Source: Bacteroidales bacterium (GTDB taxonomy: Bacteria; Bacteroidota; Bacteroidia; Bacteroidales; FEN-979). From it: a stretch of DNA of 64,000 bases. Each line of letters opens with the position of its first letter. Position 1 is the stretch's first letter. This document shows, piece after piece, positions 7,928-54,630 of the stretch. A model generated the notes under the pieces. That model saw only the letters and a list, made by a program, of their open reading frames with translations. It did not search any database and was not told the origin of the DNA. The stretch spans positions 8,339 through 72,338 of the forward strand of contig JBBQUQ010000001.1 in assembly GCA_038212325.1 (NCBI GenBank), in the 5' to 3' direction. A program made the translations under genes and the position numbers.

Positions 7928-9868
7928 TTAAAGGTAAAACACCTCCAGGCTGGTATTGATAAAATTTGACACATGAATGCTTTCTATGATCATCGGCGGA
8001 CCTTCGATGGTGAAAATTGTTGCAGGGTCGTTCAATTTCAGGTTATAGACCACAAATTCCACATATTCGCCGGGATCAAATTCGCCATGAATGTGGTTTA
8101 TTTTCAACTTGTTTTTCTCAAGCGGGTTAACCGGCTTTACTTTTAAGGTAACCGTAAAGTACTTGTACTTCGAATAGTACTCAACCAGTATTTTTTCGGA
8201 AACAGAATCGATCCGGGTATCGTTTGCGCCGGGCTGCTTCAACTGAGCGATGGCCAGCAGGGCATCGTCCGATTTATCAGCCTGGTTGTACATGATCCGA
8301 TAGCAGGGTTGCTGCGATTGTTTCGCCTGGCTCAGGAAAGCGCTGTCATTATAAAAAATGAACTGTGAAATGCCGGATTTGGCGGCAACGTAATGACTCC
8401 ATTCAAAGTTCTGTACCGTCAACCCACTGGCCTGGGTCGACGGATTATACCACAAATCTGCTCCGTACATCAGCGATGGCTGCGGAATGATTTTAAATTT
8501 ATCCGACTTCACCATTTCATCCATCGCATATAACCGGGTGCTGGCACGGTCAATGTCGCGGGTCACATAATAATTCGAAAAATCGGTGAGAAAGCTGCAC
8601 AGAACAAATCCGGCGGAAAGCACCAGCGCTGTTGCATGCCGCACGAGGGTGAAGGTTCCGGTAAAATTAAGCAAAAATGCCGTCAGGAGGGTGAGGAAAA
8701 GCACCACCCCGAACAAGGAAAAGAAGGTGGTTACATATCCCAGCATGTTTTGGGTTGTTACGTAAAAAGTGTATTTCACCGTTAATGCCAGGGGGATATG
8801 GGGGAAAAAGGTCATCATTGCTGCGAGTAAAGCCCCGGCCAGCAATGTTCTCCAGGCGATTTTCGGCATCCTGACCAGCAGGTACCAGCTCATGCCGAAA
8901 ACCAGGACGCCCTTGACGATCCATTCGACCCGGGCACGGGCAACGAGGTACGGTACGATGTTATGATAGCCGCCGATCATCTCGGATGTTTTCGCGAACA
9001 GGTCGTGGGTTGCATCATAAACCGTCAATGGGATCGCGGTGTACGATAATTTCCATAAAACAGTGAAAAATGAGTTAAGGATCGTGGCGGTGTCGGCCAT
9101 CTTATTCCCTTCATAACGCGTCGGGTGGGCATGGCTGTAGAGGATATACACGGTTAAATAAGAGATCGCGACTACCAGGAAAGGCAGGATTTGCCAGGCA
9201 ACCTTCTTCACCAACGGCAACCCTCGGTTTCCGCCGGTGAAGCTGTTATAGATGACAGCAAGGAAGACGAACACGATAAACAGGATGTACATCTCAAAAA
9301 ACAGCAAGCCCAGGGCAAACAGCATGGCAGAGCCCGCCAGTGCCCAATAATTTTTCGTTCGCTGAAAACGATGAAGCAGCAGGTACGAGAGCAGGAGGAT
9401 GGAGAACGAAAAAGAAAAGAAAAACGGGTAGTTGACAAACAGGCTGGTATGACGCGAAACCTGCGCCGTTACAAAAAACAACATCACGAAAAAGGCCGAC
9501 AGATCCTTCGATTTTGTAAGGATCAGCACCACACGGTAAAACAGGCAGAGCGATACCAGGATAGGGACGACCTGGAATAGTTTTATCACGAAAATATTAT
9601 CCCAGGCAAAAGGGATGCTTTGAATGGGAAGGGTGATGATGTATTGAAACCGGCCATGCATTTCGGCGAGGAGCACTGCATTTGTAAAAACCTTGTCAAG
9701 CCGTGTCACCAGGTAGCTGGCCATGTCGTCGCCACACGCCAGTCCGGTGTTAAACAACGGGTAAACGGAAATGATCGCAATGGTGATGAAGGCAAGATAA
9801 TAGAAAACGCTGGTGTTCCAGGTTATTTTGTCTTTGAGAAGAAACCGGCCTGCTTTTTTTATATCCAT
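7928..9868 (-). CDS. polytopic membrane protein, GT-C-like (YfhO/ArnT/PMT-style) putative glycosyltransferase with a C-terminal soluble domain
   Basis: The first ~430 aa are highly hydrophobic with many predicted TM helices. The first loop after TM1 carries the acidic motif CGDDMASY. A ~200-aa C-terminal non-membrane domain follows. ATG at 9868 (the track start at 9874 is TTG). Confidence 0.55.
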   Translation of the reverse strand: MDIKKAGRFLLKDKITWNTSVFYYLAFITIAIISVYPLFNTGLACGDDMASYLVTRLDKVFTNAVLLAEMHGRFQYIITLPIQSIPFAWDNIFVIKLFQVVPILVSLCLFYRVVLILTKSKDLSAFFVMLFFVTAQVSRHTSLFVNYPFFFSFSFSILLLSYLLLHRFQRTKNYWALAGSAMLFALGLLFFEMYILFIVFVFLAVIYNSFTGGNRGLPLVKKVAWQILPFLVVAISYLTVYILYSHAHPTRYEGNKMADTATILNSFFTVLWKLSYTAIPLTVYDATHDLFAKTSEMIGGYHNIVPYLVARARVEWIVKGVLVFGMSWYLLVRMPKIAWRTLLAGALLAAMMTFFPHIPLALTVKYTFYVTTQNMLGYVTTFFSLFGVVLFLTLLTAFLLNFTGTFTLVRHATALVLSAGFVLCSFLTDFSNYYVTRDIDRASTRLYAMDEMVKSDKFKIIPQPSLMYGADLWYNPSTQASGLTVQNFEWSHYVAAKSGISQFIFYNDSAFLSQAKQSQQPCYRIMYNQADKSDDALLAIAQLKQPGANDTRIDSVSEKILVEYYSKYKYFTVTLKVKPVNPLEKNKLKINHIHGEFDPGEYVEFVVYNLKLNDPATIFTIEGPPMIIESIHVSNFINTSLEVFYL

Positions 9869-9928
9869 GATCAAATTGGTTTAATTTCAGGTTTTAAAAA
9901 TCGTTGGATTCATTCATTCCATATACGG

Positions 9929-11386
9929 TTAAAACCTGAAATAGATGAACGGACTGAATCCGGAGGAGGTGATGGTTGCCTCGCCAAGGATGAACAGTAA
10001 AATTGCGATCACAGCGCATGCGATCATCAGACCTTTTCCCGGGTTGAAATAGAGCTTCCCGATCCATGATTCCACCTTTTTGAACCCGCCCCAGAACGAG
10101 AATAAGACGGCGATCGCCATCATGGTCCAGAATTTCGGGTTCAGCCAAACATCGCTCTCTCCTCCCTGGAAGGTAAACAGCCGGCGGATGAAAAACCAGG
10201 CTTCATCGATGGTTGCCGACCGGAAAATCAGCCAGCCGATCATCAGCAGGAAAAAGGTGAGTGCAATAGATGGCACTTTGCCTGCTTTTTTCAGGTATTT
10301 GAGCAGGAAGAGCCTGTCGGCGATGATGAAAACCCCCATGTACGCGCCCCAGATGATGAAGGTCCAGGCAGCCCCATGCCAGAAACCACACAGTAGAAAA
10401 GTTATGGTGGTGGCAATGAGGTAGATCACCTTATCGGCACGAAGTCCCAGGTATCGCTCCCTGGGAAGCTTGCGCGAAGTGGCATAGGCCAGCGGGAGAA
10501 AAACATAGTCGCGGAACCACAGAGACAGGGTCATGTGCCACCGGCGCCAGAATTCGGTGATGCTTTGCGAAACATAGGGGGAGTTGAAATTTTCGGGCAG
10601 TCTGAATCCCAGCATCCGTGCAAGCCCGATGGCCATATCGGTGTAGCCGGAGAAGTCAAAATAGATCTGGAAGGTAAAGGCCACGGCTCCGATCCAGGCC
10701 ATGCTGGTTGACAATTCGGCGGAGGAGAGCTGAAATATCTCATTGACTGTAACACCCAGCACGTCAGCGATCAGTACTTTTTTCGACAGCCCGATGATGA
10801 AACGGAAAAAACCGGTCAGCCGGAAGTCGAGCGTCTCCTGCTCCGACCGGTCGGCGATCTGCGATGCGATTTGCCCGGGCCTCACAATCGGCCCGGATAA
10901 CAGTTGTGGAAACATGAAAATATACAGTGCGTAATCCTGCAATTTTTCAAAAACCGGATACTGCTTTTTATACACATCGAAGGTGTAGGCCAGTTTCTGA
11001 AAGGTAATGAAGGAGATCCCTACCGGCAGGGCAATCTTCGTCCATCCGGCAGGTTTTGATCCGAAAACACCGAGGAGCGTGTCAAACTGGTCGACAAAGA
11101 AATTCATATATTTAAAATAGAGGAGCAGCGCCAGGTTCATCAGCACAGAAAGCCAGAACAATATCCTGCGCGCCGAACCGGTTTTCAGGGTCATCCGGCG
11201 GATGATTAAAAAATCAATGACGACCGATCCCGCCACGATAAAAACGAATTTCGGAGCTCCCCAGGCGTAGAAGAGGAGGCTGGCAATAAGGAGAAAGCCG
11301 TTTTTGTAACTGCGGTCGATCAGGAAATAAACAATCAGGATGAACGGAAGGAAGTATAGCAAAAATAAGCTGCTGTTGAATATCAT
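9929..11386 (-). CDS. MBOAT family membrane-bound O-acyltransferase (AlgI/DltB/PatA-like)
   Basis: 485 aa and polytopic. Hallmark motifs are FWRRWHMTLSLWFRDYVFLPL and LLCGFWHGAAW (the MBOAT conserved His). Confidence 0.9.
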   Translation of the reverse strand: MIFNSSLFLLYFLPFILIVYFLIDRSYKNGFLLIASLLFYAWGAPKFVFIVAGSVVIDFLIIRRMTLKTGSARRILFWLSVLMNLALLLYFKYMNFFVDQFDTLLGVFGSKPAGWTKIALPVGISFITFQKLAYTFDVYKKQYPVFEKLQDYALYIFMFPQLLSGPIVRPGQIASQIADRSEQETLDFRLTGFFRFIIGLSKKVLIADVLGVTVNEIFQLSSAELSTSMAWIGAVAFTFQIYFDFSGYTDMAIGLARMLGFRLPENFNSPYVSQSITEFWRRWHMTLSLWFRDYVFLPLAYATSRKLPRERYLGLRADKVIYLIATTITFLLCGFWHGAAWTFIIWGAYMGVFIIADRLFLLKYLKKAGKVPSIALTFFLLMIGWLIFRSATIDEAWFFIRRLFTFQGGESDVWLNPKFWTMMAIAVLFSFWGGFKKVESWIGKLYFNPGKGLMIACAVIAILLFILGEATITSSGFSPFIYFRF

Positions 11387-11389
11387 AGG

Positions 11390-12688
11390 CTACCTGAATT
11401 TTGACAAGCGTTTCAACTCATTATTGTACAAATATATCGCATCGTTCCTTACCATGGCATCCAGCGGAAGATTCTGCTCCTTCGCCTTTTTTTTCATCTC
11501 CTCCATCCATCCCGGGCTCATCCTGAAGTTCTCCTCGATCATCCTGATCCTCGTCTTTCCGGGATAATATTGCTCGTAAGCCCTGTCGACAAATCCATAA
11601 CCGATGTTGCCATAACCGGCATTGGTCTGCATCAGAATCACCACCTCCTGCCGGTCGAGTGCGCTGTCGAGGTTGATCCGGGCAGTATTTGTCGGCCTGG
11701 TATTCTGATCGGGATAAACCTCCTTGTCGTAATACCACATATCCTCCCGCAGGAACGTGTTTTTGATGATCCCGTTAAAATGCCAATACCAGTAATAGCT
11801 GTCGCTGACAAACAGTACGGCGGGTTTCGGGGCATCGCCGGCATAGGTGTGATGAAAAACAGGGTAGGTCATCTGCGGCACCGGGTTCTTCCAAACCAGG
11901 TTCAGCACGCGGTCCATGTCGTCGTCCTCCTTGCGGGCTTCAGGTTCAAGCATCAGGCTGTCGAGCACCATGTGGGGAAGTTCCCGGTTCAGGCTCTTTT
12001 CGAGATACCTGATGAGGGAATCGGCGCCTAAGTAAGCCCCGTAGCAACTCCAGTGCGCCCCGCTGAATGGGTAGAGGTTGTGACGGGAAGTGTCTTTCAG
12101 TTGCACAAGCCATGTGTTAAAATCGATCAGGTTGACCCCCGCATCTTTGAGCTTGCGCGAATAATAATCGTTATTTGTGGGTCCCCGCCCTCCTTCGAGA
12201 AAGCGGTCGGGAATGCTTTCGGGATAGTAAAAGCCTTTCCCAGGTGCCAGGATCACCAGGAGATGTATCTTCTTTTTTGTCCAGAAGTAATCCTGGAGAT
12301 ACTTGATGCGGGAAACCTTGTCGTCGAGAAACCTGGTGCCTGCGAAATCCCTGCCCAGGCATGCATCAATATGGGAATCGATTTGCATGATACCGTTCTT
12401 TCCAACAACAATGCGGGCCGCATGCGGAAGAGAAAACAACGTGTAATCGACCTGGTTGAATATCCTTGTGAATGCATTGTGGAACCCGACTGTCAGGTCG
12501 AGGTGCGGGGTAATTTTAGCCTGGTACTCGCCATTCCTGAGGTCTGCCATGCTGAATTCCGGCCGCTGCCGTTCTTCAAAATAACCTTCAAGCGGCCTGT
12601 CGGGAAAGATGGTAAGCACCTTTTGCACCGTAGGAAAAGCGAGCACCACCATGATCAAAAAAAAGATTGTGCTTTTTATCCACATCAT
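11390..12688 (-). CDS. AlgX/AlgJ-like (SGNH-like) putative O-acyltransferase partner, paralog of 6399-7862
   Basis: Its stop is 3 nt upstream of the MBOAT start. Motifs SGAHWSCYG and FVSDSYY align with YGMHWSIYG and VIADSYY of the paralog. The track start at 12742 is a TTG lying inside a -7 box. ATG at 12688 gives MMWIKSTIFFLIMVVLAF (TM anchor). Confidence 0.6.
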   Translation of the reverse strand: MMWIKSTIFFLIMVVLAFPTVQKVLTIFPDRPLEGYFEERQRPEFSMADLRNGEYQAKITPHLDLTVGFHNAFTRIFNQVDYTLFSLPHAARIVVGKNGIMQIDSHIDACLGRDFAGTRFLDDKVSRIKYLQDYFWTKKKIHLLVILAPGKGFYYPESIPDRFLEGGRGPTNNDYYSRKLKDAGVNLIDFNTWLVQLKDTSRHNLYPFSGAHWSCYGAYLGADSLIRYLEKSLNRELPHMVLDSLMLEPEARKEDDDMDRVLNLVWKNPVPQMTYPVFHHTYAGDAPKPAVLFVSDSYYWYWHFNGIIKNTFLREDMWYYDKEVYPDQNTRPTNTARINLDSALDRQEVVILMQTNAGYGNIGYGFVDRAYEQYYPGKTRIRMIEENFRMSPGWMEEMKKKAKEQNLPLDAMVRNDAIYLYNNELKRLSKFR

Positions 12689-16032: not shown

Positions 16033-18570
16033 CTATTCGTAGTAATAGATGCGCTTAACCCTCCGCGAAATGCCCGTTAAAACCTCATACGGTATCGTCC
16101 CGAGTTCCTTCGCCAGGTCAGCAACAGGATGAAGGTCGCCGAAAATGACCACCTCGTCGCCTTCACGTATTTCGGTGAAATCGTGACGGGCGATGGGTGG
16201 CAGGTGACGGGTGATGTCGACCATTGTCAGGTCCATGCATATGTTCCCGATGATCGGGGCCGGTTTGCCGTGCACATAAAGGCACCCCCTGCCGTTTCCC
16301 AGCCTGCGGTTCAGCCCGTCGGCGTAGCCCACAGGCACAATGGCGATCACTGCATCTGTTTCGCTCCTGCCTTTCCGGTTATACCCGACGGTTTCACCTG
16401 CAGGGACATGCTTGATCTGGGTGATCACCGATTTCAGGGTGCTTACATTTCTCAGCATTTGCTGTTCTTCGGGGCTGCTGCCTACCCCGTACAAGCCGAT
16501 CCCAAGCCTTACCATGTCGAACTGCGCCCCGGGAAACCGGCTGATGCCGGCGGAGTTAAGGATATGAAGCAGGACGGGGTAATCCAGGATCCGGGTTATC
16601 CTGGTGCTCATTTCTTTAAAAAGCCTGACCTGCCGGTGTGTGAAGTCATCTTCTTCCGGATCTTCGCTGGCTGCCAGGTGTGAAAACACCGATTGAACCC
16701 TCAGGCCAGGATTCAGCTTCAGTCGTTCAATCAGTGGTTCAAGTTCATCCCGGGTAAATCCCAGGCGGTGCATGCCTGTATCAAGCTTGATATGGACCCG
16801 CACCTCCTGCTGGATGGAGGTCTGGTTGCGTTCAATGGCTTTCTCAAGAAGATGGAGAATGTGCAGGTTGTAAATCTCCGGCTCCAGGTTGTATTTCAAC
16901 AGGGTGTCGAGGCTCTGCTGCTCGGGGCTCATCACCATAATGGGCAGGTGAATCGCGGCCTTTCGCAACTCCACCCCTTCATCGGCATAAGCCACGGCCA
17001 GGTAATCGACACGGTGAAACTGCAGCAGGTTGGCAATTTCAAAGCTGCCGCTGCCGTAGGAAAATGCTTTGACCATCGCCATGGTTTTCGTGCCGGGGTG
17101 CAGTCCTGCCCTGAAATGGTTCAGGTTGTGGATCAGCGCATCCAGGTTGATCTCCATCACCGTTTCATGGGCTTTTTGCTGCAAGGCCTGGCTGATTTTT
17201 TCAAACTCGAACAGGCGCGCACCTTTCAGCAGGATGATCTCATTTTGAAACGAGGAAACAGGGAAATGCTCCAGGAATTCATCGGTGGTCGTAAAAAAAT
17301 CACTTTGCATGGTGAATGTACCGGCGTGTTTCATAAGGTCGCGGCCGATGCCGATGATGCGGCTGATGTTTCGGGATGCCAGCATCGAGGCTACCTCCCG
17401 GTACAATTCAGCCTTGTCGCGCCCTGTTTGAAGAATATCCGACAGGATGACTGTTTTTTTGTGCTGCTGGTTCTGCTGGTTCAGAAAATCGAGGGCGATG
17501 CTGAACGAATTGATGTCGGAATTGTAGCTGTCGTTGATCAGGGAACAGTGATTGATGGCCTCTTTGAGCTCGAGGCGCATGGCGATCGGAGCCAGGGAGG
17601 AATAGCGTGACAGGTGACGCGTGATGCGTGACATGCCTCCAAGGACAATATCGGTGGCGATGCAGTGAATGGAATTTTCTATCGAGGCCTCATCGGTAAA
17701 GGGGATGGTTACTTTAAAAGTTTCCGACCGCGACTCTCCGTGAATATGGGTTTGAGTCATTTCTTTTGTGACCCTGAAAATTTTCAGGTCGGCTTCGTGA
17801 TGCCGGCTCCAGGTGAATGTTTCCAGGTGTTTAAAGGCCGGGTCTGCCTTCAAACACTCTTTAATCAGCGAATAATCAGAACAGTAAACCAGGGTTTTTG
17901 CATTTGTGAACAGTTTCAGCTTTTCATTGACCTTCAGGCGCTGGCTATCAAAATACTCATCATGGGCATGACCGATGTTGGTGAAAATGCCGATCGTGGG
18001 GCTGATGATGGGTGCAATGCGCACCATTTCGCCCGGGCAGGATATGCCTGCTTCAAAGATGGCCAGGTTGTGGCCCGGCGCCATCTTCCACACCGAAAGC
18101 GGAACACCGGTCTGCGAATTATAGCTTTTGGGGCTGCGAATGATCCGGTAGTCGCCGCTCATCAGTTGAAAGAGCCACTCCTTGACAATGGTTTTGCCGT
18201 TGCTGCCGGTGATCCCAATAACGGGAATGGCGAACCGGCTCCGGTGGAATGCGCCAAGGGTTTGCAAGGCTGAGAGGGTGTCGGGGACAAGGATGAACGT
18301 TGCCAGGGGAAAAAGGCGGGCAGGCTGAAGGGCTGACGGGCAGACTGAAACCAGAAATGTTCGTACTCCCTTTTCATAGAGTTCGTCAATATATTTATGC
18401 CCGTCGTTGCGATCGGAAACCAGGGCAACAAAGAGGCAATTTTCGGGGTGGATGAGCCGCCGGCTGTCGATCAGCAGGTCGACGATTACAGGATCATCGC
18501 TGCCTGCGGAATAAACAGTACCGCCGCATATGGAGGCAATTTTCGAGACCGTGATGGCCTGGTCTGTCAT
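16033..18570 (-). CDS. murF/alr: bifunctional UDP-N-acetylmuramoyl-tripeptide--D-alanyl-D-alanine ligase / alanine racemase
   Basis: 845 aa. The N-terminal half is Mur ligase (GITGSNGKT P-loop). The C-terminal half is alanine racemase (AMVKAFSYGSGS PLP-lysine motif, LGIGLYG, CMDLTMVD). This fusion is common in Bacteroidota. Confidence 0.9.
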   Translation of the reverse strand: MTDQAITVSKIASICGGTVYSAGSDDPVIVDLLIDSRRLIHPENCLFVALVSDRNDGHKYIDELYEKGVRTFLVSVCPSALQPARLFPLATFILVPDTLSALQTLGAFHRSRFAIPVIGITGSNGKTIVKEWLFQLMSGDYRIIRSPKSYNSQTGVPLSVWKMAPGHNLAIFEAGISCPGEMVRIAPIISPTIGIFTNIGHAHDEYFDSQRLKVNEKLKLFTNAKTLVYCSDYSLIKECLKADPAFKHLETFTWSRHHEADLKIFRVTKEMTQTHIHGESRSETFKVTIPFTDEASIENSIHCIATDIVLGGMSRITRHLSRYSSLAPIAMRLELKEAINHCSLINDSYNSDINSFSIALDFLNQQNQQHKKTVILSDILQTGRDKAELYREVASMLASRNISRIIGIGRDLMKHAGTFTMQSDFFTTTDEFLEHFPVSSFQNEIILLKGARLFEFEKISQALQQKAHETVMEINLDALIHNLNHFRAGLHPGTKTMAMVKAFSYGSGSFEIANLLQFHRVDYLAVAYADEGVELRKAAIHLPIMVMSPEQQSLDTLLKYNLEPEIYNLHILHLLEKAIERNQTSIQQEVRVHIKLDTGMHRLGFTRDELEPLIERLKLNPGLRVQSVFSHLAASEDPEEDDFTHRQVRLFKEMSTRITRILDYPVLLHILNSAGISRFPGAQFDMVRLGIGLYGVGSSPEEQQMLRNVSTLKSVITQIKHVPAGETVGYNRKGRSETDAVIAIVPVGYADGLNRRLGNGRGCLYVHGKPAPIIGNICMDLTMVDITRHLPPIARHDFTEIREGDEVVIFGDLHPVADLAKELGTIPYEVLTGISRRVKRIYYYE
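16183..16217. repeat. degenerate 7-bp tandem array (gtgacgg gcgatgg gtggcag gtgacgg gtgatgt) inside the alr coding region
   Basis: Read directly. It translates on the minus strand to DITRHLPPIARHDF. Confidence 0.6.
17605..17632. repeat. 7-bp tandem array (gcgtgac aggtgac gcgtgat gcgtgac) inside the murF coding region
   Basis: Read directly. It translates on the minus strand to MSRITRHLSRY. Confidence 0.8.
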
Positions 18571-25500: not shown

Positions 25501-26568
25501 AGTTACGGATGTAAAAACTACAAGTTTTATGCTTACACCGGGTATTCATATACGTTCAAGACCGGTTGCGGCGACGGGGCTACTGCAAATTATGACAGTT
25601 ACCTGCAAGTGCTTGATGCAAGCTGTGCAGAGGTTGCCTACAATGACGACGGTTGCGACGGCACATTGTCAAAGATCGAATGGACCCCGGTCGCCAGTGG
25701 ATATTACACGCTTAAAGTGCTTGGATATTCAAGCAATTTCGGCTCCTACACCCTTGCATACAATATGTGTTATACGGCACCGGCAATGCCTGACCTGATC
25801 TCGGGCCCGGCAGTGATTGGTGAAGGTACCGAACAGTCCTACAGCATTCCTGAGGTATACGGAGCAACATCCTACACCTGGTCATTCAGCGGTACGGGGA
25901 TTATTACCGGAAGCGGAACCAGCATCATCCTGTCGGCAACAAGCGACGGAGTGTTGAGTGTTACAGCGAACAACCTCTGCGGAAGCAGTTCTCCTTACCA
26001 GTTAGGCATAACCGTCATCCCGCAATTCGTTTACCCTGCCAATATTGTCATAACACCGGGGTCGACCGTATGCTATGCTGCCACGCAAACCATCACGGTG
26101 GCCGGCGGTGGATCCTACTACTATGTTCTGAATGGCGGCAGCGCCGAATTTGTTGCCGGGCAAAATATCTTTTTCATGCCCGGGTTAACGGTATACAGCG
26201 GAGGTCATCTCCTTGGCCGGATCACAACCACCGATACCTATTGTACGCCGGTTGTTGCAAAATCTGTCGAGAATGGCATTGCCGGAACTGCCGGGAATGA
26301 GATGCCTGCAATAATCGCAGGGGATTCATTCTTCAAAGTTTACCCAAATCCAACGTCCGGTGCCTTCACGCTTGAATTATCCGCCGAACCCGAAGGAGAA
26401 CTGGTGAAGGTGCAATGTTACAACCTTTTAGGGGCTTTGATCATTGAGAAGGAGTTCGAAACAGGAAAGCGCCATGAATTCACACTGGCCAACCAGGCAC
26501 CCGGGCTCTACGTATTAAAGGTTACGCAAAATAACCGGGCTGGCATGCAGAAGATTGTCAGGCAATAG
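22567..26568 (+). CDS. T9SS-secreted trypsin-like (S1, lysyl/glutamyl-endopeptidase-like) serine peptidase with three tandem Cys-rich repeats, a PPC-like domain and a sorting domain
   Basis: 1333 aa with a signal peptide. Catalytic-triad motifs: LLTANHCF (His), SDFTMVLL (Asp), TTGGSSGGLIV (Ser). Three ~125-aa repeats span aa 584-950, followed by a PPC-like domain. The T9SS tail is KVYPNPTSGAFTLEL...GLYVLKV. Confidence 0.85.
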   Translation: MKKNYLLSLPIIAVLLLGQLLFFQHTAYSQATEPVSIGTESHVVNFDNALHQKPVQHHLTRALTPQEMHVLGELTPAERTLIEGYVEPLAVGVVRDLKEPIRFSLSEINIPAQGEVSVSGGRLARINEDTIVWTTCIKSAKADELRIFFSEGNFPDGVKVNFFSKDGYAFNQFDLRGMLKEDGFYTTTTFADYVFMEVVIPVRLITENLYFVVPKVVHSDSRYMPDAPLDCYQDVNCSYANGYGDIGSLKASTAKLSFVVSGVNYICSGGLLNDARGIDWQPFLLTANHCFSSQASATSLEARFDLFSTSCNGGTNPNVVLVNGSSLIATNSGSDFTMVLLNQFPSGYRAFLGWTTGAVADNETMHSVNHPAGMPQKYVRVANDYSPAYNCTGFSTSNFHYTNVLGGQTTGGSSGGLIVNSGGGVVGQLYGTCHGTTWGECNYGSFNNMWGRFNVSYNNNNLQYWLNGGGSSVYMSTSTSSLSYATLNVGSYQDLTVTVYNDGYIPYYLNLEAGNAYISGADASQFSIIGTSYLYLSPSTSGTFTVRFAPTSSGAKSASLNIPHNANNIVSPKVISLSGAAEPCSNIISLGTGGTANAKTYSKSGSGIWYTTFSPCGSWSCPGNEQIYSFTAPYTGYYSIAVSASNSHWIDYMWKTSCDGGVWTCIDDAYYPGTYGSIYWTAGSTYYILADAESTALTTQTFYVFLNPCLNTVSIGGTGPDYSQTYNGGGTGGWNSNIAGPCSWLCPGVESVYSFVAPYTGYYSLNVSSTTEYYVDYAWSTSCGSTGWNCIQDVLSPGNYGNMFWTAGTTYYILLDDENGVVGPQTFYINEPNPCQGIISLACNQSVAFAGGGPGVWGYNPCYSSPGFEQIYSFVAPTTGQYSIEVNAAGSWVDYLWKAGSCSAGDWNCISYVQSPGQYGSMEWTAGTTYYIMLDDEDTYAGIHSFKIICPELCHTCPVYDYQISPNETWQLSSSSIDSYGCKNYKFYAYTGYSYTFKTGCGDGATANYDSYLQVLDASCAEVAYNDDGCDGTLSKIEWTPVASGYYTLKVLGYSSNFGSYTLAYNMCYTAPAMPDLISGPAVIGEGTEQSYSIPEVYGATSYTWSFSGTGIITGSGTSIILSATSDGVLSVTANNLCGSSSPYQLGITVIPQFVYPANIVITPGSTVCYAATQTITVAGGGSYYYVLNGGSAEFVAGQNIFFMPGLTVYSGGHLLGRITTTDTYCTPVVAKSVENGIAGTAGNEMPAIIAGDSFFKVYPNPTSGAFTLELSAEPEGELVKVQCYNLLGALIIEKEFETGKRHEFTLANQAPGLYVLKVTQNNRAGMQKIVRQ

Positions 26569-26607
26569 AGCAAGTTCCCGGTATCGGGTTAAATATTTTA
26601 CCGGCAG

Positions 26608-26648
26608 AAAAGCCATTTACGGGGTCACCCCCTGTAAATGGCTTTTTT
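26608..26648 (+). terminator. rho-independent terminator
   Basis: The hairpin is aaagccatttacgggg / ccctgtaaatggcttt with a short loop, followed by a T-run (gcTTTTTTga), 40 nt after the stop at 26568. Confidence 0.7.
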
Positions 26649-26715
26649 GAACCCCTGATCATGGCTTAACTTTTAAGCCAAAATATCTGTTTCTTAACCT
26701 GTAAAACCTTCAGCT

Positions 26716-29700
26716 ATGAATAAAAAAATAACTCACCTGAGCATTCTGCTGCCAATCATCATGATGTTGATCTTATTCACATCCATATCACAATCTTTCG
26801 CACAAAATGAACAGTCGGCAGGAACTCCATTGGTGGTTCATCCTGCCAGGGCAGAAACTGTTTCTGAAATTATGGACCGGGCAAAAAGAAATCCCGAACC
26901 GCAGATGCACGTGCGGCCTGAAATGGAAAATCCCGATCGCTCGAACCTGCCTCAAAATCCTGAATCCAGGCCTGCCGCAGGTTTTCCAGAATATGACCAG
27001 TCTGCCAATGCTTATCGGGGCCAGGCTTCTGACCAGCCTCAGACAATTGGCCTTTCCTTCAGCGGATTTACCAGTTCATCCGCATTCGGGCCTTTTCCCC
27101 CTGACGATATGGGAGCCATCGGCCCCACTCAGTATATCGTGGCAGTTAACGGAATCATCAGGTCATTTAATTCAACCACCGGGGTGGCTGATGGGGTTTT
27201 GAATGCAACCCCCGAAGCCTTCTTCGCCTCGGTCATGACCCCGATCGGAGGCGCAATAACATCCAATTTTACTTCGGATCCGCGGGTTCGGTACGACCGG
27301 CTTTCGGGCAAATGGATCCTGATCATTATTGACGTGCCAAATAATGGTGCTGCTGCAAACAGGTTGTTAATCGCCGTAAGCAATACATCAACCATCACTG
27401 GCGGTACTGTGTGGACATTCACCCAGTTTACCAGTGAGGCAAATACGTTCTTTGACTACCCTACCATCGGGATCGATGTAAACGCCGTTTATATCGGGGG
27501 AAATATGTTTTCGCTGGCCGGGAATTTTGTTCACACAAACGGCTATGTGATTAACCGGCTGAACCTGGAATCAGGCGGCGCATATACGGTGTATCCTTTC
27601 CTCAACCTGGCACTGGGAGCCGGCGCTGGTCCGTATACGCCGCAAGGCGTTGATAATTTTGACATTTCGGCCACCCAGGGATATTTTATCGGCGTGGATA
27701 ACGCTACCTATGGCACCCTCATGTTGCGCAGGGTGAGTACGCCGGCTGGCGTGCCAACTATTTCATCAAATATTCCCGTCACAGTTAATTCCACCTCTGG
27801 TCCTCATATCGTTCCCCATTCAGGCAATACCGGGGGCACCAATGGGAACCTCGACGCCATTGATGACAGGCTTTACGCCGCCATGATCAGGGGCGGACAT
27901 TTGTGGACCGCGCAAACTATTTACGTGAATGCATCGGGCACCACCACTTCGGCAAATCGCAACGGAGTGCGCTGGTATGATCTGATGAACCTGGCCACTA
28001 CACCGGCAGTAAACCAGTCAGGAACTGTTTTCGACCCTGCAGCCTCCAACCCCAGGTGGTACTTCTTCCCGTCGGTTATGGTCTCCGGACAAGGTCACGC
28101 TGCATTCGGTTTAACTGCCGGTGGTAACGCCGACCATGCCAATGCCGCCACAACCGGCCGTTTATCCGTTGATCCGGCAGGGACCACGCAGTCCATCGCC
28201 TTGACCACCGCAAGCGCCACAGCCTATAATCCTTCCGGCGACCCCGGAGGTGCCGGCGGAAGGAGATGGGGAGATTACTCTTATGTTTCGCTTGATCCGC
28301 TTGATGATATGACGATGTGGATGGTAAACCAATATTGTTCAGGGGCCAATGTTTATGGCTGCAATGTCACCAAACTGATCGCACCGCCGCCTGCTACCCC
28401 CGCAACCTGCAGTCCCGCTGTGGCATCAGCCGGACAGTCTTCGGTCAATATTGTGGTAACCGGCAATTCGGTCAGCGGCAGCGGATTTTATGATCCGGGC
28501 TCCAATCTTCCGGCGCCGGCATTGGCTTTTCATCATATTACAGCCACCGTTACAGGAGGTGTTGTGGTTAACAGCGTAACCTATACCAATCCTACACATA
28601 TTACGTTGAATATCAATACAAATGCTGCCACTGGCGGTTTGCAGACAGTTACGGTTTTCAATCCCGACGGACAATCCGTTGCCGGCATCGGGATCCTGAG
28701 GATCTGCCCGCTGATCACGGTTATAAATCCAACACCTGCGACCGGTACGGCAGGAACTGTTTTCAGCAAGACTTTTACCTCTTCCGGAGGAGCGCCGGCA
28801 GTCACCTATAGTACTGCAAGCGTGTTACCAAATGGCCTGGCACTGGCCGCCAATGGTGTGTTGAGCGGAGTTCCAGCCCAAACAGGCACCTTCCCTGTCG
28901 TTGTCGTTGCCACCGATGTTAATGGTTGTACCGGTACAGGTTCTCCTTATAACCTGGTGATAAGCTGTCCGGTTGTGAATCCTTCAATTTTCGCAAACGG
29001 ACCCACCGCATTTTGTCCGGGAGGATCGGTGCAATTATCTTCCAGCGGTGGCAATGCCTTGCAATTCAATGGCACCTCAAGTTATGTGACCATTCCTTCG
29101 GGCATCAATTCGGCCTTCAGCAGCAGCCGGGTTACCGTTGAAGGCTGGTTTTACCAGACCGCTGCAACCGTTGCCACCCCGGCCCTTGTCACAGAAGCGT
29201 ACCTCGGCGACGGAAAAGTGACATTTTCGATGTATTTAAGCGGACAGCAGATCATCGCCGGATTCTTTTCCGGTGCCTGGATCACCGCCGGCAGCACTTC
29301 AAACCTGCCGCTGAACGTATGGACCCATGTTGCAGCCACTTATGATCAAACGGCCATCAGGATTTATATCAACGGCGTAGCTGCGGGCTCTTTTGCAACT
29401 GCCTCTGTGTTGCCAGCCGGCACCGAAGAATGGAGAATAGGCAGGAGATGGGATAATGCCGAATATTTCCAAGGCAGAATGGATGAAATACGTATTTGGA
29501 ATATAGCCAGGTCGCAGGCCCAGATCCAGGCAGGCATGAGCATGGTCCTTCCGCCAAATACAAACGGTTTGACTGCCTGCTACAGGCTCGATGAAGGAGC
29601 AGGAACATCGGCCGCAGACCTTACCGGACATGGATATAATGGCACCATCGTGAGCAGTCCGACATGGGTAATTCCATCAACAGCACCACTGGCAGGTTAT

Positions 29701-30636
29701 TCCGGCTACCTGTGGTCGAACGGCGCTGCCACTTCCGGCATCAATGTAAATGCCACAGGAAGTTACACCGTTACCGTCACTGATCTTTATGGCTGTGCTG
29801 GTGCCAGTGCTGCAACTGCAGTCACCTTGAAGGGATTAACCGGTGCCGCCGGGGTGATTTCGGGTCCGGCCGTGACTGCCCAGGGACATACGGGACTTGT
29901 TTATACGGTTCCGGCCATTCCAAATGCGACCGGTTATGTGTGGGCTTTACCATCAGGGGCGACCCCTGCATCAGGGTCCAATACAAACAGCATCACAGTT
30001 GATTTTTCGGCAGCGGCTGTTTCAGGAAACATAAGTGTTTATGGGACGAATGATTGTGGAAACGGCGCGGTATCTCCGCAATTTGCCATCACCGTTATTG
30101 TCTCAACCTACAATACAGGGAATACCGTAGTGAACTCCGGAAATATACTATGTTATAACGCCATCCAGACCATTTTTGTTCCGGGGAACGGCAACACCTT
30201 TGCAGTGCTGAGTGGCGGAAGCGCCACCATGATCGCCGGTCAGAATATATTCTATCAGCCGGGGACAATGGCTGCATCCGGTGGATATCTGCACGGGTAC
30301 ATTACCACGAACAACCAGTATTGCGGCGGGATGGCACCCTCCATGCTTACAGTGGTTGCAGGGATTGAAACACTTCCGGTGGGTTCAGTTACCCCATTCT
30401 TAAAAATATACCCGAATCCCACCTCCGGAACCTTTACAATTGAACTGACCGGCGATACAGGATCACAGGATGCGAGGGTTGAAATTATGAATATGAACGG
30501 TGTCAAAGTGCTTGATGAACAGCTGAACGGTGACAGGAAATACAACTTATCCATCACAGCCATGCCACCGGGCCTCTATTTTATACATGTTGTTGCAGGA
30601 AACCTTGCTGAAACGGTTAAATTGGTAAAATTGTAA
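26716..30636 (+). CDS. T9SS-secreted multidomain protein with Ig-like and LamG (concanavalin-like) domains
   Basis: 1306 aa with a signal peptide. Putative-Ig domain: TFTSSGGAPAVTYS...LPNGLALAANGVLSGVP. LamG_3-like domain: LQFNGTSSYVTIP...WTHVAATYD...GRMDEIRIWNIARSQAQIQ. T9SS tail: KIYPNPTSGTFTIEL...GLYFIHV. The N-terminal ~550 aa are unrecognised. Confidence 0.85.
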   Translation: MNKKITHLSILLPIIMMLILFTSISQSFAQNEQSAGTPLVVHPARAETVSEIMDRAKRNPEPQMHVRPEMENPDRSNLPQNPESRPAAGFPEYDQSANAYRGQASDQPQTIGLSFSGFTSSSAFGPFPPDDMGAIGPTQYIVAVNGIIRSFNSTTGVADGVLNATPEAFFASVMTPIGGAITSNFTSDPRVRYDRLSGKWILIIIDVPNNGAAANRLLIAVSNTSTITGGTVWTFTQFTSEANTFFDYPTIGIDVNAVYIGGNMFSLAGNFVHTNGYVINRLNLESGGAYTVYPFLNLALGAGAGPYTPQGVDNFDISATQGYFIGVDNATYGTLMLRRVSTPAGVPTISSNIPVTVNSTSGPHIVPHSGNTGGTNGNLDAIDDRLYAAMIRGGHLWTAQTIYVNASGTTTSANRNGVRWYDLMNLATTPAVNQSGTVFDPAASNPRWYFFPSVMVSGQGHAAFGLTAGGNADHANAATTGRLSVDPAGTTQSIALTTASATAYNPSGDPGGAGGRRWGDYSYVSLDPLDDMTMWMVNQYCSGANVYGCNVTKLIAPPPATPATCSPAVASAGQSSVNIVVTGNSVSGSGFYDPGSNLPAPALAFHHITATVTGGVVVNSVTYTNPTHITLNINTNAATGGLQTVTVFNPDGQSVAGIGILRICPLITVINPTPATGTAGTVFSKTFTSSGGAPAVTYSTASVLPNGLALAANGVLSGVPAQTGTFPVVVVATDVNGCTGTGSPYNLVISCPVVNPSIFANGPTAFCPGGSVQLSSSGGNALQFNGTSSYVTIPSGINSAFSSSRVTVEGWFYQTAATVATPALVTEAYLGDGKVTFSMYLSGQQIIAGFFSGAWITAGSTSNLPLNVWTHVAATYDQTAIRIYINGVAAGSFATASVLPAGTEEWRIGRRWDNAEYFQGRMDEIRIWNIARSQAQIQAGMSMVLPPNTNGLTACYRLDEGAGTSAADLTGHGYNGTIVSSPTWVIPSTAPLAGYSGYLWSNGAATSGINVNATGSYTVTVTDLYGCAGASAATAVTLKGLTGAAGVISGPAVTAQGHTGLVYTVPAIPNATGYVWALPSGATPASGSNTNSITVDFSAAAVSGNISVYGTNDCGNGAVSPQFAITVIVSTYNTGNTVVNSGNILCYNAIQTIFVPGNGNTFAVLSGGSATMIAGQNIFYQPGTMAASGGYLHGYITTNNQYCGGMAPSMLTVVAGIETLPVGSVTPFLKIYPNPTSGTFTIELTGDTGSQDARVEIMNMNGVKVLDEQLNGDRKYNLSITAMPPGLYFIHVVAGNLAETVKLVKL

Positions 30637-30678
30637 CAGGAAACCTTGCACCCCGTCGGTGAAAGAATCGTGGCAACA

Positions 30679-31770
30679 TTACTTCATTTTGATCAATTTG
30701 AGTATTTCAGTTGAACCATCTGCCGTAACCATAACAAAATAAAGTCCATCTGAAAAATCAACCATGCTGAATTCGTGTTGTTTCTCTCCATGCAGCCTTT
30801 CATTCATCACCATTACCCCATCCATGGTATAAACCTTTACCTCAACATTTTCAAGGTCATGATCGCCCTTAAGTAACAGTGTGAAATTACCATTTGTGGG
30901 ATTGGGGTATATCAGCATGGAAGGTTTTTCAACTTCTCCTTCACTGATAAGTGTCGACTTTAAACCATTGTTCAACGATCTATCTTTGAGACAGCGAGTG
31001 GATAGTCCTGTCACTTTATAAAACTGGCCATTGGTTGAGGCGGCGATTGAATACGATGCTCCACGATAATATACATCAGTATTGGGATTATAACCTGGCG
31101 ACACAGTCCAGAAGATAGCATCCTTGCCCTTATAATAGAAATTTCCGTTACTCCAGCGTTCGCCGGCAGGTAAAGCCGTAAACCCCACGGAATTGGTGGC
31201 TGCAGTATTTGGAAACAGATAGTGAGTATATCCTTTTTCCTTAATCATTCCTCCGGCAACCCCCACCCCACCCAAATAAGTCACCAGTGCTCCCCATTCA
31301 CCATTGGTCGGTATATGCCATCCGCCCGGACAAATACCCTGAACATCGCCTGTAGGTATAGGATTCCAATTCGTTGTATTATTTGCTCCATTAAGATATT
31401 GAACCATTTCGCTCCATTGGTAGAGTCCACCGTAAACTTTACATAACGAATCTAAATCGTCGTAACAGTATTTTTCAATGATTCCGTTATCAGTTTGATT
31501 TTGATTACTGTTGATTTTTGTACCAACAGATAAATTATTTTTAAACCAGCATTGTGAACCTATTTCTACTGTGTAAAGTATATCTCCGCCATAAACTACT
31601 ATTGAAATTCCATTGCATGCACCACCCGGCAATGTGTCAGGTATGGCGATAAACCGTTTATGAAGAATTGTGCTTGGTGGTTTGATTTGAATATCAATTC
31701 CAATATATGTTTGTGCTGATGCAGTGAACACAGACAACCCGAATAACAATAATAAACTAAAATTTTTCAT
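30679..31770 (-). CDS. T9SS-secreted protein with a Fibrobacter succinogenes major paralogous (Fib_succ_major) domain
   Basis: Motifs YGGLYQWSEM and CPGGWHIPTNGEW. T9SS tail: IYPNPTNGNFTLLL...GLYFVMV. ATG at 31770 gives the signal peptide MKNFSLLLLFGLSVFTASAQ. The track start at 31869 would lie upstream of the -7 box. Confidence 0.8.
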   Translation of the reverse strand: MKNFSLLLLFGLSVFTASAQTYIGIDIQIKPPSTILHKRFIAIPDTLPGGACNGISIVVYGGDILYTVEIGSQCWFKNNLSVGTKINSNQNQTDNGIIEKYCYDDLDSLCKVYGGLYQWSEMVQYLNGANNTTNWNPIPTGDVQGICPGGWHIPTNGEWGALVTYLGGVGVAGGMIKEKGYTHYLFPNTAATNSVGFTALPAGERWSNGNFYYKGKDAIFWTVSPGYNPNTDVYYRGASYSIAASTNGQFYKVTGLSTRCLKDRSLNNGLKSTLISEGEVEKPSMLIYPNPTNGNFTLLLKGDHDLENVEVKVYTMDGVMVMNERLHGEKQHEFSMVDFSDGLYFVMVTADGSTEILKLIKMK

Positions 31771-31805
31771 TTTCTCGTTTTTTAAATTACCGGAATTCAA
31801 CTGCG

Positions 31806-31813
31806 CAAAGGTA
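31806..31813 (-). promoter_or_regulatory. candidate -7 box (TACCTTTG on the minus strand)
   Basis: Matches TAnnTTTG, 36 nt upstream of the ATG at 31770. Confidence 0.35.
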
Positions 31814-32082
31814 AATACCCTTTTAATCACAGGTATTACACAAATTTGAAATAATGTTGTATGTTTCACACGTTTTCCAGAGAAATGGGTTTTCTCTTTG
31901 CAATCCCGTAATTGCCACTACGCAAAAGCTTCCTTATCTCCTCCATGATTTTAATATGGTCAATCCGGACTCATGGAGTGTTTTTTCATCGGGGTACAAC
32001 GACAACAGTAACCTGGTAGCTCCGCACCCACTGATTGAAAATCTCACGGTTCATATTAATGGGCATTGTTCAGGAAGTAATT

Positions 32083-32110
32083 TAAAAACCACCCTTTACG
32101 AGTGGTGGTT
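32083..32110 (-). terminator. rho-independent terminator of the 32118-33980 gene
   Basis: The minus-strand RNA has the stem aaccacc/ggtggtt with a 10-nt loop, followed by TTTTT, 8 nt after the stop. Confidence 0.5.
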
Positions 32111-32117
32111 ACAGCAA

Positions 32118-33980
32118 TTAATATTTCTTAATGATTTTAGCGTTAGATGACCTGTCTCCCATCGTCACATGAATAAAATAAATTCCGGGTTGCATGTTAT
32201 TGATGGAAAATTCTTTTGACTTATTACCTGTCATGTCCTCTTCAATGACCTTTGCTCCAAGCATGCTGTAAATCTGCACCACCGGGCGAGATAATTGTTC
32301 TGAGGCTAACAATTCGAGCGTAAATTTTCCTTCTGTGGGGTTGGGATAAACTCTGAAGAGGTTCGACTTATCGCCTATAATCGGTTTATTCTCATTTACA
32401 GTGGTAGTCAACATCGAAAGAGGTTGCATCCCGCAGGGGGATTCGCTGATATATCCATGTAAGTAACCTCCGCTCAGAACAGTGGTTCCCGGCATATAGT
32501 GGATCTCTTGTCCCGCAATCATACTAACATTACCACCAGGCTGTACGATAAAGTAGGTTCCATTTCCCGCCACGGTAATGGTTTGCATGGCATTATACAC
32601 TCTGGTATCTGCAACAATGATATTGGTCAGGTAAAGATTGGCAGGAACCACAGGATTGGTACTATTGACAGTTATTGCAACGGTAGTCAATGCCCCGGTA
32701 GTTGTAAGCGCTCTGCCGTCAAGTATAACTCCGGTATTCAGCCCCAGAGCACCGTTGTTACAAATTATTGTTCCGCAGAAAACTGAATAATTATTTATGC
32801 TCACTGCACCTTCAATTTTCCAAAACACATTTCTTGCCATCGCTCCGTTTGTCAAAATGACTTTTGAATAGGTACTTGTTGAAAGTGCACCGTTTATCTT
32901 GATAACAAATACTGCATCGGGGTTACCTTGCGCATCGAGGTAAAGACTATCTGTTAATACTGTAGCAGCATCAAGGAGATACGTATGCGGAGTCAGATTC
33001 AGGTTGTTTCCAAACTGTGCAGGATATAACAGGTTGATATCATAAGGCAGGAGATTGAGATAATTATATACATTGAGTAAATCGGCTGCGCAGGTTGCTG
33101 TGGAGATATCCGGAATGGGATGTATGGTACCGGTTACGAGTAAAGGATCAAAGCCTGTGGTTAAACCTACATTCGTTCCAATATCCCCAACAACATGCGT
33201 GATGCCGCTGTTTGAAACAGCTCCGTCAGCAGAAAATAATGCATAGCATGCTGTTGAAGCAAGGGCAGGAGCATCGGGTCCGGTGAGCACAGGACTTCCG
33301 CAACCGACCGGGGTAAATGCCTTCACTCCGTGAACAGTAACTGCTCCTGCAATAGAAAGGGCTCTTCCATTAAGTCTGCTGCCTGAGAATATTTCTATTG
33401 CAGCATTGTGGGCGATGATAGTTCCCTTCATCTTGGTACCAGCGGCCAGACTCACTAAACCTTCTACTTTCCAGTATACATTACATGCTTGCGCACCATT
33501 AAGCAAAAGTATCCGGGAAGAGGGGCCGGAGGAGAATGCACCCTGGATTTGGAAAATAAATACAGCATTTGCATTTCCCTGCCCGTCTAAATATAGGTCC
33601 AGGTTCAGCGATGCAGCCGCGGAAATTGAATAAACACCTTCGTTAAGTGTGTCGCCATTACCTAAAAGAGGCGCAGGAAAGAACATAGGTGTTGTCCCAT
33701 TCAGCAGGTTATATGCAGTGAGCAAATCAGCGGAAGCTGATGCACTCACGCCATCACCATCGTGCATCTGCCCGTTCACATTGCCAAACCCGGTGCTGGA
33801 ACCTGAGTTTGTGCCTACATTTCCTGTGATGTGCGAAATTCCGGTGTTGGTTACAGCTCCCGCAGAAGAGAAAAGCACAAAACTGCCCACAGTGCCCAAA
33901 TTGGGAGCCTGGGCAAAATTCATAATCGGGAATAATAACAAAGTACCGGATGTCAAAATATACAGAATTTTTGCTTTCAT
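32118..33980 (-). CDS. T9SS-secreted protein with two tandem ice-binding-like (DUF3494) beta-helix domains
   Basis: 620 aa with a signal peptide. The DUF3494-type openings LGTVGSFVLFSSAGAVTNTGISHITGNVGTNSGSSTGF and ACYALFSADGAVSNSGITHVVGDIGTNVGLTTGF each precede ...NGRALS/DGRALT. T9SS tail: RVYPNPTEGKFTLEL...GIYFIHV. Confidence 0.8.
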   Translation of the reverse strand: MKAKILYILTSGTLLLFPIMNFAQAPNLGTVGSFVLFSSAGAVTNTGISHITGNVGTNSGSSTGFGNVNGQMHDGDGVSASASADLLTAYNLLNGTTPMFFPAPLLGNGDTLNEGVYSISAAASLNLDLYLDGQGNANAVFIFQIQGAFSSGPSSRILLLNGAQACNVYWKVEGLVSLAAGTKMKGTIIAHNAAIEIFSGSRLNGRALSIAGAVTVHGVKAFTPVGCGSPVLTGPDAPALASTACYALFSADGAVSNSGITHVVGDIGTNVGLTTGFDPLLVTGTIHPIPDISTATCAADLLNVYNYLNLLPYDINLLYPAQFGNNLNLTPHTYLLDAATVLTDSLYLDAQGNPDAVFVIKINGALSTSTYSKVILTNGAMARNVFWKIEGAVSINNYSVFCGTIICNNGALGLNTGVILDGRALTTTGALTTVAITVNSTNPVVPANLYLTNIIVADTRVYNAMQTITVAGNGTYFIVQPGGNVSMIAGQEIHYMPGTTVLSGGYLHGYISESPCGMQPLSMLTTTVNENKPIIGDKSNLFRVYPNPTEGKFTLELLASEQLSRPVVQIYSMLGAKVIEEDMTGNKSKEFSINNMQPGIYFIHVTMGDRSSNAKIIKKY

Positions 33981-54627: not shown

Positions 54628-54630
54628 AAT
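54603..54630. repeat. 8-bp tandem array, 3.5 units (aaatagtg aaatggcg aaatggtg aaat)
   Basis: Read directly. It contains the lysS stop and abuts the stop of the convergent 54630-56666 gene. Confidence 0.85.

Follow-up and report, generated by a model that had tools for sequence, protein, structure and literature searches.

Within a 64,000-nucleotide stretch of DNA from a Bacteroidales bacterium (GenBank assembly GCA_038212325.1, contig JBBQUQ010000001.1, positions 8,339 to 72,338 of the forward strand; the whole stretch is called the window here), three genes for predicted type IX secretion system (T9SS) cargo proteins each carry one copy of a small conserved module just before the C-terminal sorting domain (CTD). 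T9SS cargo is usually described as a passenger plus a CTD. To our knowledge, studies of the region just before the CTD are limited to a few Porphyromonas proteins, in which it affects processing and anchoring.

Three cargo genes with a common C-terminal segment

The open reading frame (ORF) of P1 (22567-26568, plus strand) encodes 1333 amino acids (aa) that comprise, in order, a signal peptide, a trypsin-like region, a choice-of-anchor D domain, three Cys-rich repeats, a PKD_6 domain, the module, a linker and a type A CTD. P2 (26716-30636, plus strand; 1306 aa) has a signal peptide, a LamG domain (Laminin_G_3), PKD_6, the module, a linker and a type A CTD, while in P3 (32118-33980, minus strand; 620 aa) the signal peptide is followed by two Ice_binding (DUF3494) domains, the module, a linker and a type A CTD. 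The N-terminal Sec signal peptides of P1, P2 and P3, read directly from the sequence, are MKKNYLLSLPIIAVLLLGQLLFFQHTAYSQ, MNKKITHLSILLPIIMMLILFTSISQSFAQ and MKAKILYILTSGTLLLFPIMNFAQA, respectively. Secretion of all three proteins, cleavage in the linker by the sortase PorU and anchoring to a glycolipid are predicted from this layout.

In each protein, the module is the stretch without annotation between the curated domains. It lies at 26038-26244 on the plus strand in P1 (aa 1158-1226), where both of its conserved Cys residues are kept, at 30121-30324 on the plus strand in P2 (aa 1136-1203; the copy used for the structure model) and at 32433-32636 on the minus strand in P3 (aa 449-516), where the first conserved Cys is replaced by Val. 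An earlier note on this DNA had picked out these three blocks shortly before a YPNP tail; they translate exactly to the peptides quoted there, and all three proteins do end in a type A sorting domain above the curated cutoffs of 27 bits for PF18962 and 23 bits for TIGR04183. The CTD of P1 (26338-26565, plus strand; aa 1258-1333) scores 47.8 and 39.9 bits with these two models, that of P2 (30406-30633, plus strand; aa 1231-1306; a predicted seven-strand beta-sandwich) 55.6 and 48.0 bits, and that of P3 (32121-32351, minus strand; aa 544-620) 52.1 and 48.7 bits; the Por_Secre_tail matches of the curated models span aa 1258-1331, 1231-1303 and 544-617, respectively. The note had also described a block of about 75 aa that precedes the module in P1 and P2. 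This block is real and is the Pfam domain PKD_6 (PF19408), which was found at 25780-26001 in P1 (plus strand; aa 1072-1145; E 2.9e-13, 50.4 bits) and at 29848-30075 in P2 (plus strand; aa 1045-1120; E 2.7e-18, 66.5 bits), in both cases above the gathering threshold of 25 bits.

Between module and CTD lies a linker. In P1 (26245-26337, plus strand) it is unconserved and, by analogy with the model of P2, predicted to be disordered; it is the region in which PorU cleavage would be expected from the published location of the cleavage site (PMC11969387, PMC4804311). The linkers of P2 and P3 occupy 30325-30405 on the plus strand and 32352-32432 on the minus strand.

Pairwise BLAST restricted to the three modules gave 50-62% identity and 58-71 bits (E 3e-18 to 4e-13), while 100 shuffles of one module reached a maximum of 25 bits, and chance similarity of the three copies is thereby ruled out. 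A hidden Markov model (HMM) of the three copies found no further copy in a six-frame translation of the window. Full-length BLAST showed that P1, P2 and P3 share one continuous segment, which is the module, the linker and the tail.

A fourth, adjacent cargo gene, P4 (30679-31869, minus strand), encodes a FISUMP domain and a T9SS tail without the module and serves as an internal control. In full-length BLAST it has only the tail in common with P1-P3. Its tail is of the same subtype, since an HMM of the family's tails scores it as high as those of the other proteins, and 27 residues separate a terminal Cys of its last domain from YPNP, as in module-bearing proteins. The listed GTG start of P4 is probably too far upstream, as an internal MKNFSLLLLFGLSVFTASAQ looks to be the actual signal peptide.

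Sequence anatomy of the module

Within the family defined below, mean pairwise identity is 0.56 for the module, 0.13 for the linker and 0.34 for the tail. The consensus of the module reads ..N.....G(Q)..CYNA.QTITVAG.GTTF.V..GGSAT.IAGQNI..LPGT.V..GGYLHGYITT.G.YC, with a near-invariant Cys close to each end. Both Cys are kept in 149 of 150 sequences. The copy in P3 is the only one of the 150 aligned sequences without the first Cys, and it keeps the last. Conservation of the pair suggests that a disulfide staples the two together; if they normally form one, the P3 copy would be left with an unpaired Cys.

The last Cys has Tyr, Phe or Trp before it and often Gly after it, and stands about 100 residues from the C-terminus of the protein, such that it would come to lie close to the mature C-terminus once the CTD is removed. 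From this Cys to the xPNP motif there are 25-40 residues, with a mode of 27-28, in the 150 sequences; in P1-P3 the distance to YPNP, read from the translations, is 28-32 residues. Pro, Ser, Thr, Ala and Glu are abundant in the linker, whose length is roughly constant (about 24 residues).

Size, range and passengers of the family

When 1.84 billion representatives of clusters at 50% identity were scanned exhaustively with HMMER, 1,855 of them fell into the family at E<=1e-3, and 1,240 did so at E<=1e-10. A word-indexed protein search with a 3-sequence or an 87-sequence profile returned one match each, this type of search being nearly blind to so short a query. We examined 151 proteins, i.e., the best 150 of the 1,855 clusters and one earlier match. 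Each has one to three copies of the module, and in 14 of the 151 there are two or three copies back to back. These tandem copies have a period of about 79 aa, each has a Cys pair of its own, and the last copy alone adjoins the linker and tail.

Passenger domains are highly diverse. Among 91 full-length members and the window proteins they include LamG, trypsin-like, ice-binding-like, FISUMP, RHS and SprB domains, and the full-length members add PKD, cohesin, fn3, a C39-like peptidase and the Listeria-Bacteroides repeat. PKD_6 is found upstream of the module in 18 of the 91.

A pattern scan of one genome per species detected 69 loci, all in metagenome-assembled genomes (MAGs) of Bacteroidota and up to about seven in a single MAG; most are labelled Bacteroidales, Prolixibacteraceae or Draconibacterium. 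As the patterns were derived from the 3-sequence alignment and are narrow, this taxonomic range is an underestimate and should be read as a lower bound. A top match with the architecture of P2 is P0017 (1302 aa; LamG, PKD_6, module and tail; public name "LamG-like jellyroll fold domain-containing protein"), encoded at 8001-11909 of locus L070 (GCA_049317265.1, JBMOIP010000008.1). Its neighbours are unrelated cell wall and glycosyltransferase genes, with no adjacent module-bearing cargo. P0017 thus sits in a different gene neighbourhood, and the idea that the three-cargo cluster of the window is a conserved operon was rejected.

Coupling to the T9SS tail

A T9SS tail follows the module in 149 of the 151 examined proteins, the two exceptions being truncated fragments. 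In these proteins module and tail are separated by a median of 22 aa (5-95% range, 19-28), and the median distance from the end of the module to the C-terminus is 98 residues. With the curated models, PF18962 and TIGR04183 each matched 88 of the 91 full-length members. Across the 69 related loci and the window, 75 ORF segments had a module and a tail, 8 had a tail only and 6 a module only, and 5 of the last 6 are cut at the end of the segment. The adjacency to a TIGR04183-type tail noticed in three proteins of the window hence extends to 75 of 81 module-bearing segments. One module-bearing segment (L038, plus strand, frame 2; L038|+1|1907) continues for 49 further residues in which a tail was not detected; a frameshift, a pseudogene or a rare tail-less member could account for it.

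Tails without a module occur in P4 and 7 other ORF segments, and these coexist in genomes with module-bearing cargo. Identities of module and tail are only weakly correlated (Mantel r 0.16; maximum of 0.146 in 500 permutations).

Predicted structure

AlphaFold2 modelled the P2 copy of the module, from an alignment of 87 sequences, with a predicted local distance difference test score (pLDDT) of 88.9 and a predicted template modeling score (pTM) of 0.75. Nine short strands fall into three groups (residues 2-4, 8-10 and 15-20; 23-26, 33-35 and 40-45; and 48-51, 55-57 and 62-67). On this model, the module is an autonomous folded domain of about 70 residues, and we infer from the DSSP string that the three groups of three strands form a three-rung triangular beta-helix. 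An internal repeat, Q-[TN]-I ... [AP]-G ... V-x-x-G-G ... I, is discernible by eye only. A Foldseek search of the module against the PDB gave no significant match (best E 0.6, TM score <=0.43), and neither was there an Ig-like match; the weak matches listed are mostly beta-solenoids.

It is conceivable that such a domain is a ligand-binding or adhesion unit, a mini beta-helix lectin or an element resembling a carbohydrate-binding module (CBM), directed at a common substrate or at the cell's own surface polysaccharide. The high conservation, which includes aromatic and His positions (GGYLHGYITT motif), would fit this proposal, as would tandem multiplication, which is typical of modules driven by avidity, and the presence of enzymes and adhesin-like proteins among the passengers. 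The searches revealed, however, no sequence or fold similarity to a CBM or lectin and no significant fold match in the PDB. Binding modules are not as a rule fixed at one position beside a secretion signal, and in this very small domain the conserved positions are mostly Gly and small residues of the kind typical of beta-helix turns. We therefore consider a binding function quite unlikely.

A second model, of module, linker and CTD together, had a pLDDT of 87.2 and a pTM of 0.47. Two domains are predicted with confidence, while the linker has a pLDDT of <50; together with the low pTM this indicates that module and CTD have no fixed mutual orientation. The CTD half of the model consists of seven strands at residues 100-176, and as a positive control it was matched by Foldseek to solved CTDs: 8glk_D, the NucA CTD in the translocon (E 1.2e-5, TM score 0.86, root mean square deviation 1.8), 8qb1 (mirolase CTD) and 8gl6_D (RemA CTD). 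These matches cover the CTD half only, and no match of the two-domain model covers the module.

These models bear on two proposals about the nature of the module. The earlier note had suggested that it could be a linker; this was rejected, as the module is confidently folded, and the true linker is the unconserved stretch of about 24 residues downstream. The second proposal is that the module belongs to an enlarged CTD that outer-membrane translocation requires. Such an arrangement would agree with the constant position of the module beside the CTD, and CTDs of different lengths do exist (PMC11969387). The CTD alone, however, forms a complete seven-strand sandwich that matches solved CTDs at a TM score of 0.86, and what joins it to the module is flexible and unconserved. 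The tail subtype of P4 and other proteins with a tail only is no different, and where long and short CTDs have been described, the difference lies within the sandwich and not in an added domain (PMC11969387). The module was accordingly rejected as an integral part of the CTD, and a role of this kind in translocation appears very improbable.

Relation to catalogued domains

Among curated models, NCBIfam NF045639 (GCX_COOH, "3-coathanger stack domain-containing protein") alone recognises the module. The isolated modules of P1, P2 and P3 score 17.9, 12.7 and 18.2 bits, respectively, against a cutoff of 26, all in the same register (profile positions 12/13-46 of 49), and the full-length scan of P1-P3 gave no match to this model at E<=0.01. 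At E<=1, NF045639 matches 74 of 87 family modules, making it by far the most frequent family among the matches (best E 3.2e-10). Its cutoff is reached by about 6 of the 87 modules and by 4 of the 91 full-length proteins (about 5%). One protein that passes is P0008, which has two copies of the module (35.7 bits, profile positions 12-47). Since some proteins closely related to the window copies score above the cutoff, with an unchanged register, we conclude from these profile matches that the module is homologous to NF045639 and is a divergent relative that falls below its threshold.

The NF045639 model, with 49 positions, covers only rungs 2 and 3, leaving the first rung and the first Cys of the module outside, and stops short of the last Cys by a few residues. 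The predicted three groups of three strands fit the name "3-coathanger stack" if this is read, as we do, as three stacked triangular coat hangers, and the short name GCX_COOH suggests a C-terminal Gly-Cys-Xaa.

The module, which the earlier note could not name with confidence, can therefore be given a name. It belongs to a lineage already covered by NCBIfam, albeit an uncharacterised one, and is not a new kind of system. The note had regarded a Pfam or NCBIfam domain with known function as grounds for refutation; of these two elements, NCBIfam supplies the definition but not the function. Full-text literature searches for the accession or for the names of the domain and the model yielded no biological paper, and no function is attached to NF045639. 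In a recent review of T9SS effectors, the terms for a domain before the CTD ("linker," "spacer," "upstream of the CTD") were not found. Pfam has no model for the module and gave only scattered noise at E<=10 with the window modules and at E<=1 with the 87 members, and a sequence search of the PDB found no related solved structure (best E 0.027). As the window copies score below the NF045639 cutoff, an annotation pipeline would leave these proteins unlabelled for the domain. Members go by the public names "hypothetical protein," "T9SS type A sorting domain-containing protein," "YD repeat-containing protein" and "LamG-like jellyroll fold domain-containing protein," and the coathanger domain appears in none of these names.

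Other observations in the window

Residues 585-955 of P1 (24319-25431, plus strand) form three tandem Cys-rich repeats of about 120 aa with the motif CPG.E.(I/V)YSF.AP.TG.YS. The repeats are 47-51% identical to one another (E 1e-30 to 1e-41) and had no match in Pfam or NCBIfam at E<=0.01; a fourth, unrelated Cys-rich segment of about 115 aa follows them. Elsewhere, a 678-aa protein (54630-56666, minus strand) combines a peptidyl-arginine deiminase domain of the Porphyromonas type with CBM_56 and, at the C-terminus, a FlgD_ig match, and a 1474-aa protein (1945-6369, minus strand) has a C-terminal FlgD_ig domain as its only Pfam match. These two may be cargo with another type of CTD, outside the reach of the tail HMM. 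A gene at 16033-18570 (minus strand) encodes an 845-aa protein in which the middle and C domains of a Mur ligase are fused to a complete alanine racemase.

Discussion

Our results place a small folded domain, related to NF045639, directly before the linker and type A CTD of many T9SS cargo proteins. We hold both the identity of the module and its coupling to the CTD with high confidence. What the module does is a separate question. Type A cargo is exported by Sec, folds in the periplasm and is recognised via its CTD, after which PorU cleaves it within the flexible linker, immediately ahead of the folded CTD, and attaches the cargo to a surface glycolipid (PMC11969387, PMC4804311). In RgpB, an immunoglobulin superfamily (IgSF) domain is connected by a disordered linker to the CTD without a fixed orientation (PMC4804311). 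de Diego et al. concluded that the length of this junction decides attachment to anionic lipopolysaccharide (A-LPS) and that CTD processing is dictated by motifs in the two domains on either side of the linker, and they suggested in 2016 a possible function of the IgSF domain as "spacer or insulator" (PMC4804311).

By analogy, the proteins described here would be exported by Sec and fold in the periplasm, and the CTD would then carry them through the T9SS. PorU would cut the flexible linker and couple the new C-terminus to the surface glycolipid. With cleavage in the linker, no folded domain of the mature protein would follow the module, which would also be the domain closest to the outer membrane. 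During secretion it may act as a rigid spacer or insulator that stops diverse passengers from interfering with the CTD, and it may make the linker accessible to the sortase; once the protein is anchored, a compact pedestal that resists proteases could be its function. The pre-CTD IgSF domain of gingipains has been assigned such a role in the literature, here filled by an unrelated fold. A homologue of PorZ is encoded in the window (49989-52304, plus strand; 771 aa; PorZ N-terminal beta-propeller PF21544, E 1e-40, with Reg_prop repeats), about 17 kb from the cargo cluster, which shows only that the attachment machinery exists in this organism.

Several observations favour a role as spacer or pedestal: the variable copy number and bead-like tandem arrangement, the fusion to very diverse passengers, the lack of a predicted contact between module and CTD and the existence of P4, in which the same tail subtype and the same 27-residue spacing from Cys to YPNP are found without a module. 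We give this interpretation about even chances of being correct. Of the three guesses of the earlier note, the "surface-attachment stalk" agrees best with the data.

Some points weigh against this interpretation or the description on which it is built. Conservation of the module exceeds that of the secretion signal (56% vs 34%) by more than a passive spacer would lead one to expect, and a partner common to the family may be the reason; a tiny, Gly-rich beta-helix may, however, be under unusually strong fold constraint, and this could explain the conservation. The copy in P3 lacks one Cys of the pair. Rung geometry and the disulfide are deduced from the DSSP string and from conservation, and alignment of the three predicted rungs against each other with hhalign detected no significant internal repeat (E about 0.5). 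Finally, the counts for coupling rest on the best 150 of 1,855 clusters, and tail-less members are possible among the weaker matches.

The high conservation is also the reason for which we keep, as the main rival, the possibility that the module is a docking or recognition element for the attachment complex (PorU, PorV, PorZ, PorQ or a lineage-specific shuttle) or for the anchoring glycolipid. Such an element would set the efficiency or site of CTD cleavage and determine whether cargo is anchored or released. In addition to its conservation above that of the CTD, the tightly constrained position of the module and length of the linker relative to the CTD would be in keeping with docking, as would the control of processing and A-LPS attachment in RgpB by motifs of both flanking domains and by junction length (PMC4804311), and PorZ is encoded nearby. 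However, P4 has an equal linker length without a module, so the length constraint belongs to the unit of linker and tail. Most modules in tandem arrays do not adjoin the CTD, AlphaFold2 predicts no contact between the two, module and tail co-vary only weakly, and the same genomes also encode CTD proteins that lack the module. On balance, docking seems to us somewhat doubtful. A stronger version, in which the module is a dedicated, lineage-wide element that is read by PorU, PorV, PorZ or the glycolipid and decides both cleavage and surface fixation, we regard as unlikely. The "recognition element for processing" suggested by the earlier note is possible, but P4 and the 7 tail-bearing ORF segments without a module indicate that it is not required for this type of tail.

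The spacer or pedestal reading, if it is the whole story, would yield a modest gain in annotation. Even so, one small domain fills the position before the CTD in at least 1,855 clusters at 50% identity (checked in the best 150) and is conserved above the CTD itself. Pfam misses the module and the sole NCBIfam model misses about 95% of the family, leaving an annotation gap; a full-length model of about 70 residues would improve the annotation of many "hypothetical" surface proteins of Bacteroidota. The module is a candidate for testing how the region before the CTD influences PorU cleavage and surface attachment, and it could serve as a compact spacer in T9SS display constructs. The stronger version of docking, if true, would amount to a second, previously unrecognised signal in T9SS cargo and would explain the high conservation and the fixed distance.

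Comparison with known systems

Three groups of known systems resemble the module in part. Bactofilin DUF583, the C-terminal domain of MinC, the curli proteins CsgA/FapC and the passenger rungs of autotransporters share with it short stacked beta-rungs and Gly-rich turns. These beta-solenoids are longer, are polymer-forming or passenger domains and have neither a Cys pair at the two ends nor a link to the T9SS. The "long" and "short" CTDs of Prevotella intermedia (PMC11969387) are similar in that extra sequence is found near the cleavage site and that cleavage occurs in a flexible linker. Their extra length, however, lies inside the sandwich (seven strands vs three), whereas the CTD modelled here is a normal seven-strand domain and the module a separate one.

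The closest counterpart is the IgSF domain of RgpB, Kgp and PPAD (PMC4804311). It, too, stands directly before a type A CTD, with a disordered linker in between that leaves the orientation of the two domains free, and it closes the folded part of the mature cargo, as the module is predicted to do. The two differ in fold, an Ig beta-sandwich in one case and a predicted mini beta-helix in the other, such that they would be functional analogues only. The linker of RgpB has 9 residues (PMC4804311), compared with about 24 in the module family, and IgSF sequences are not highly conserved across cargos whereas the module is. In its way of working, the module most probably resembles this pre-CTD IgSF domain of the gingipains.

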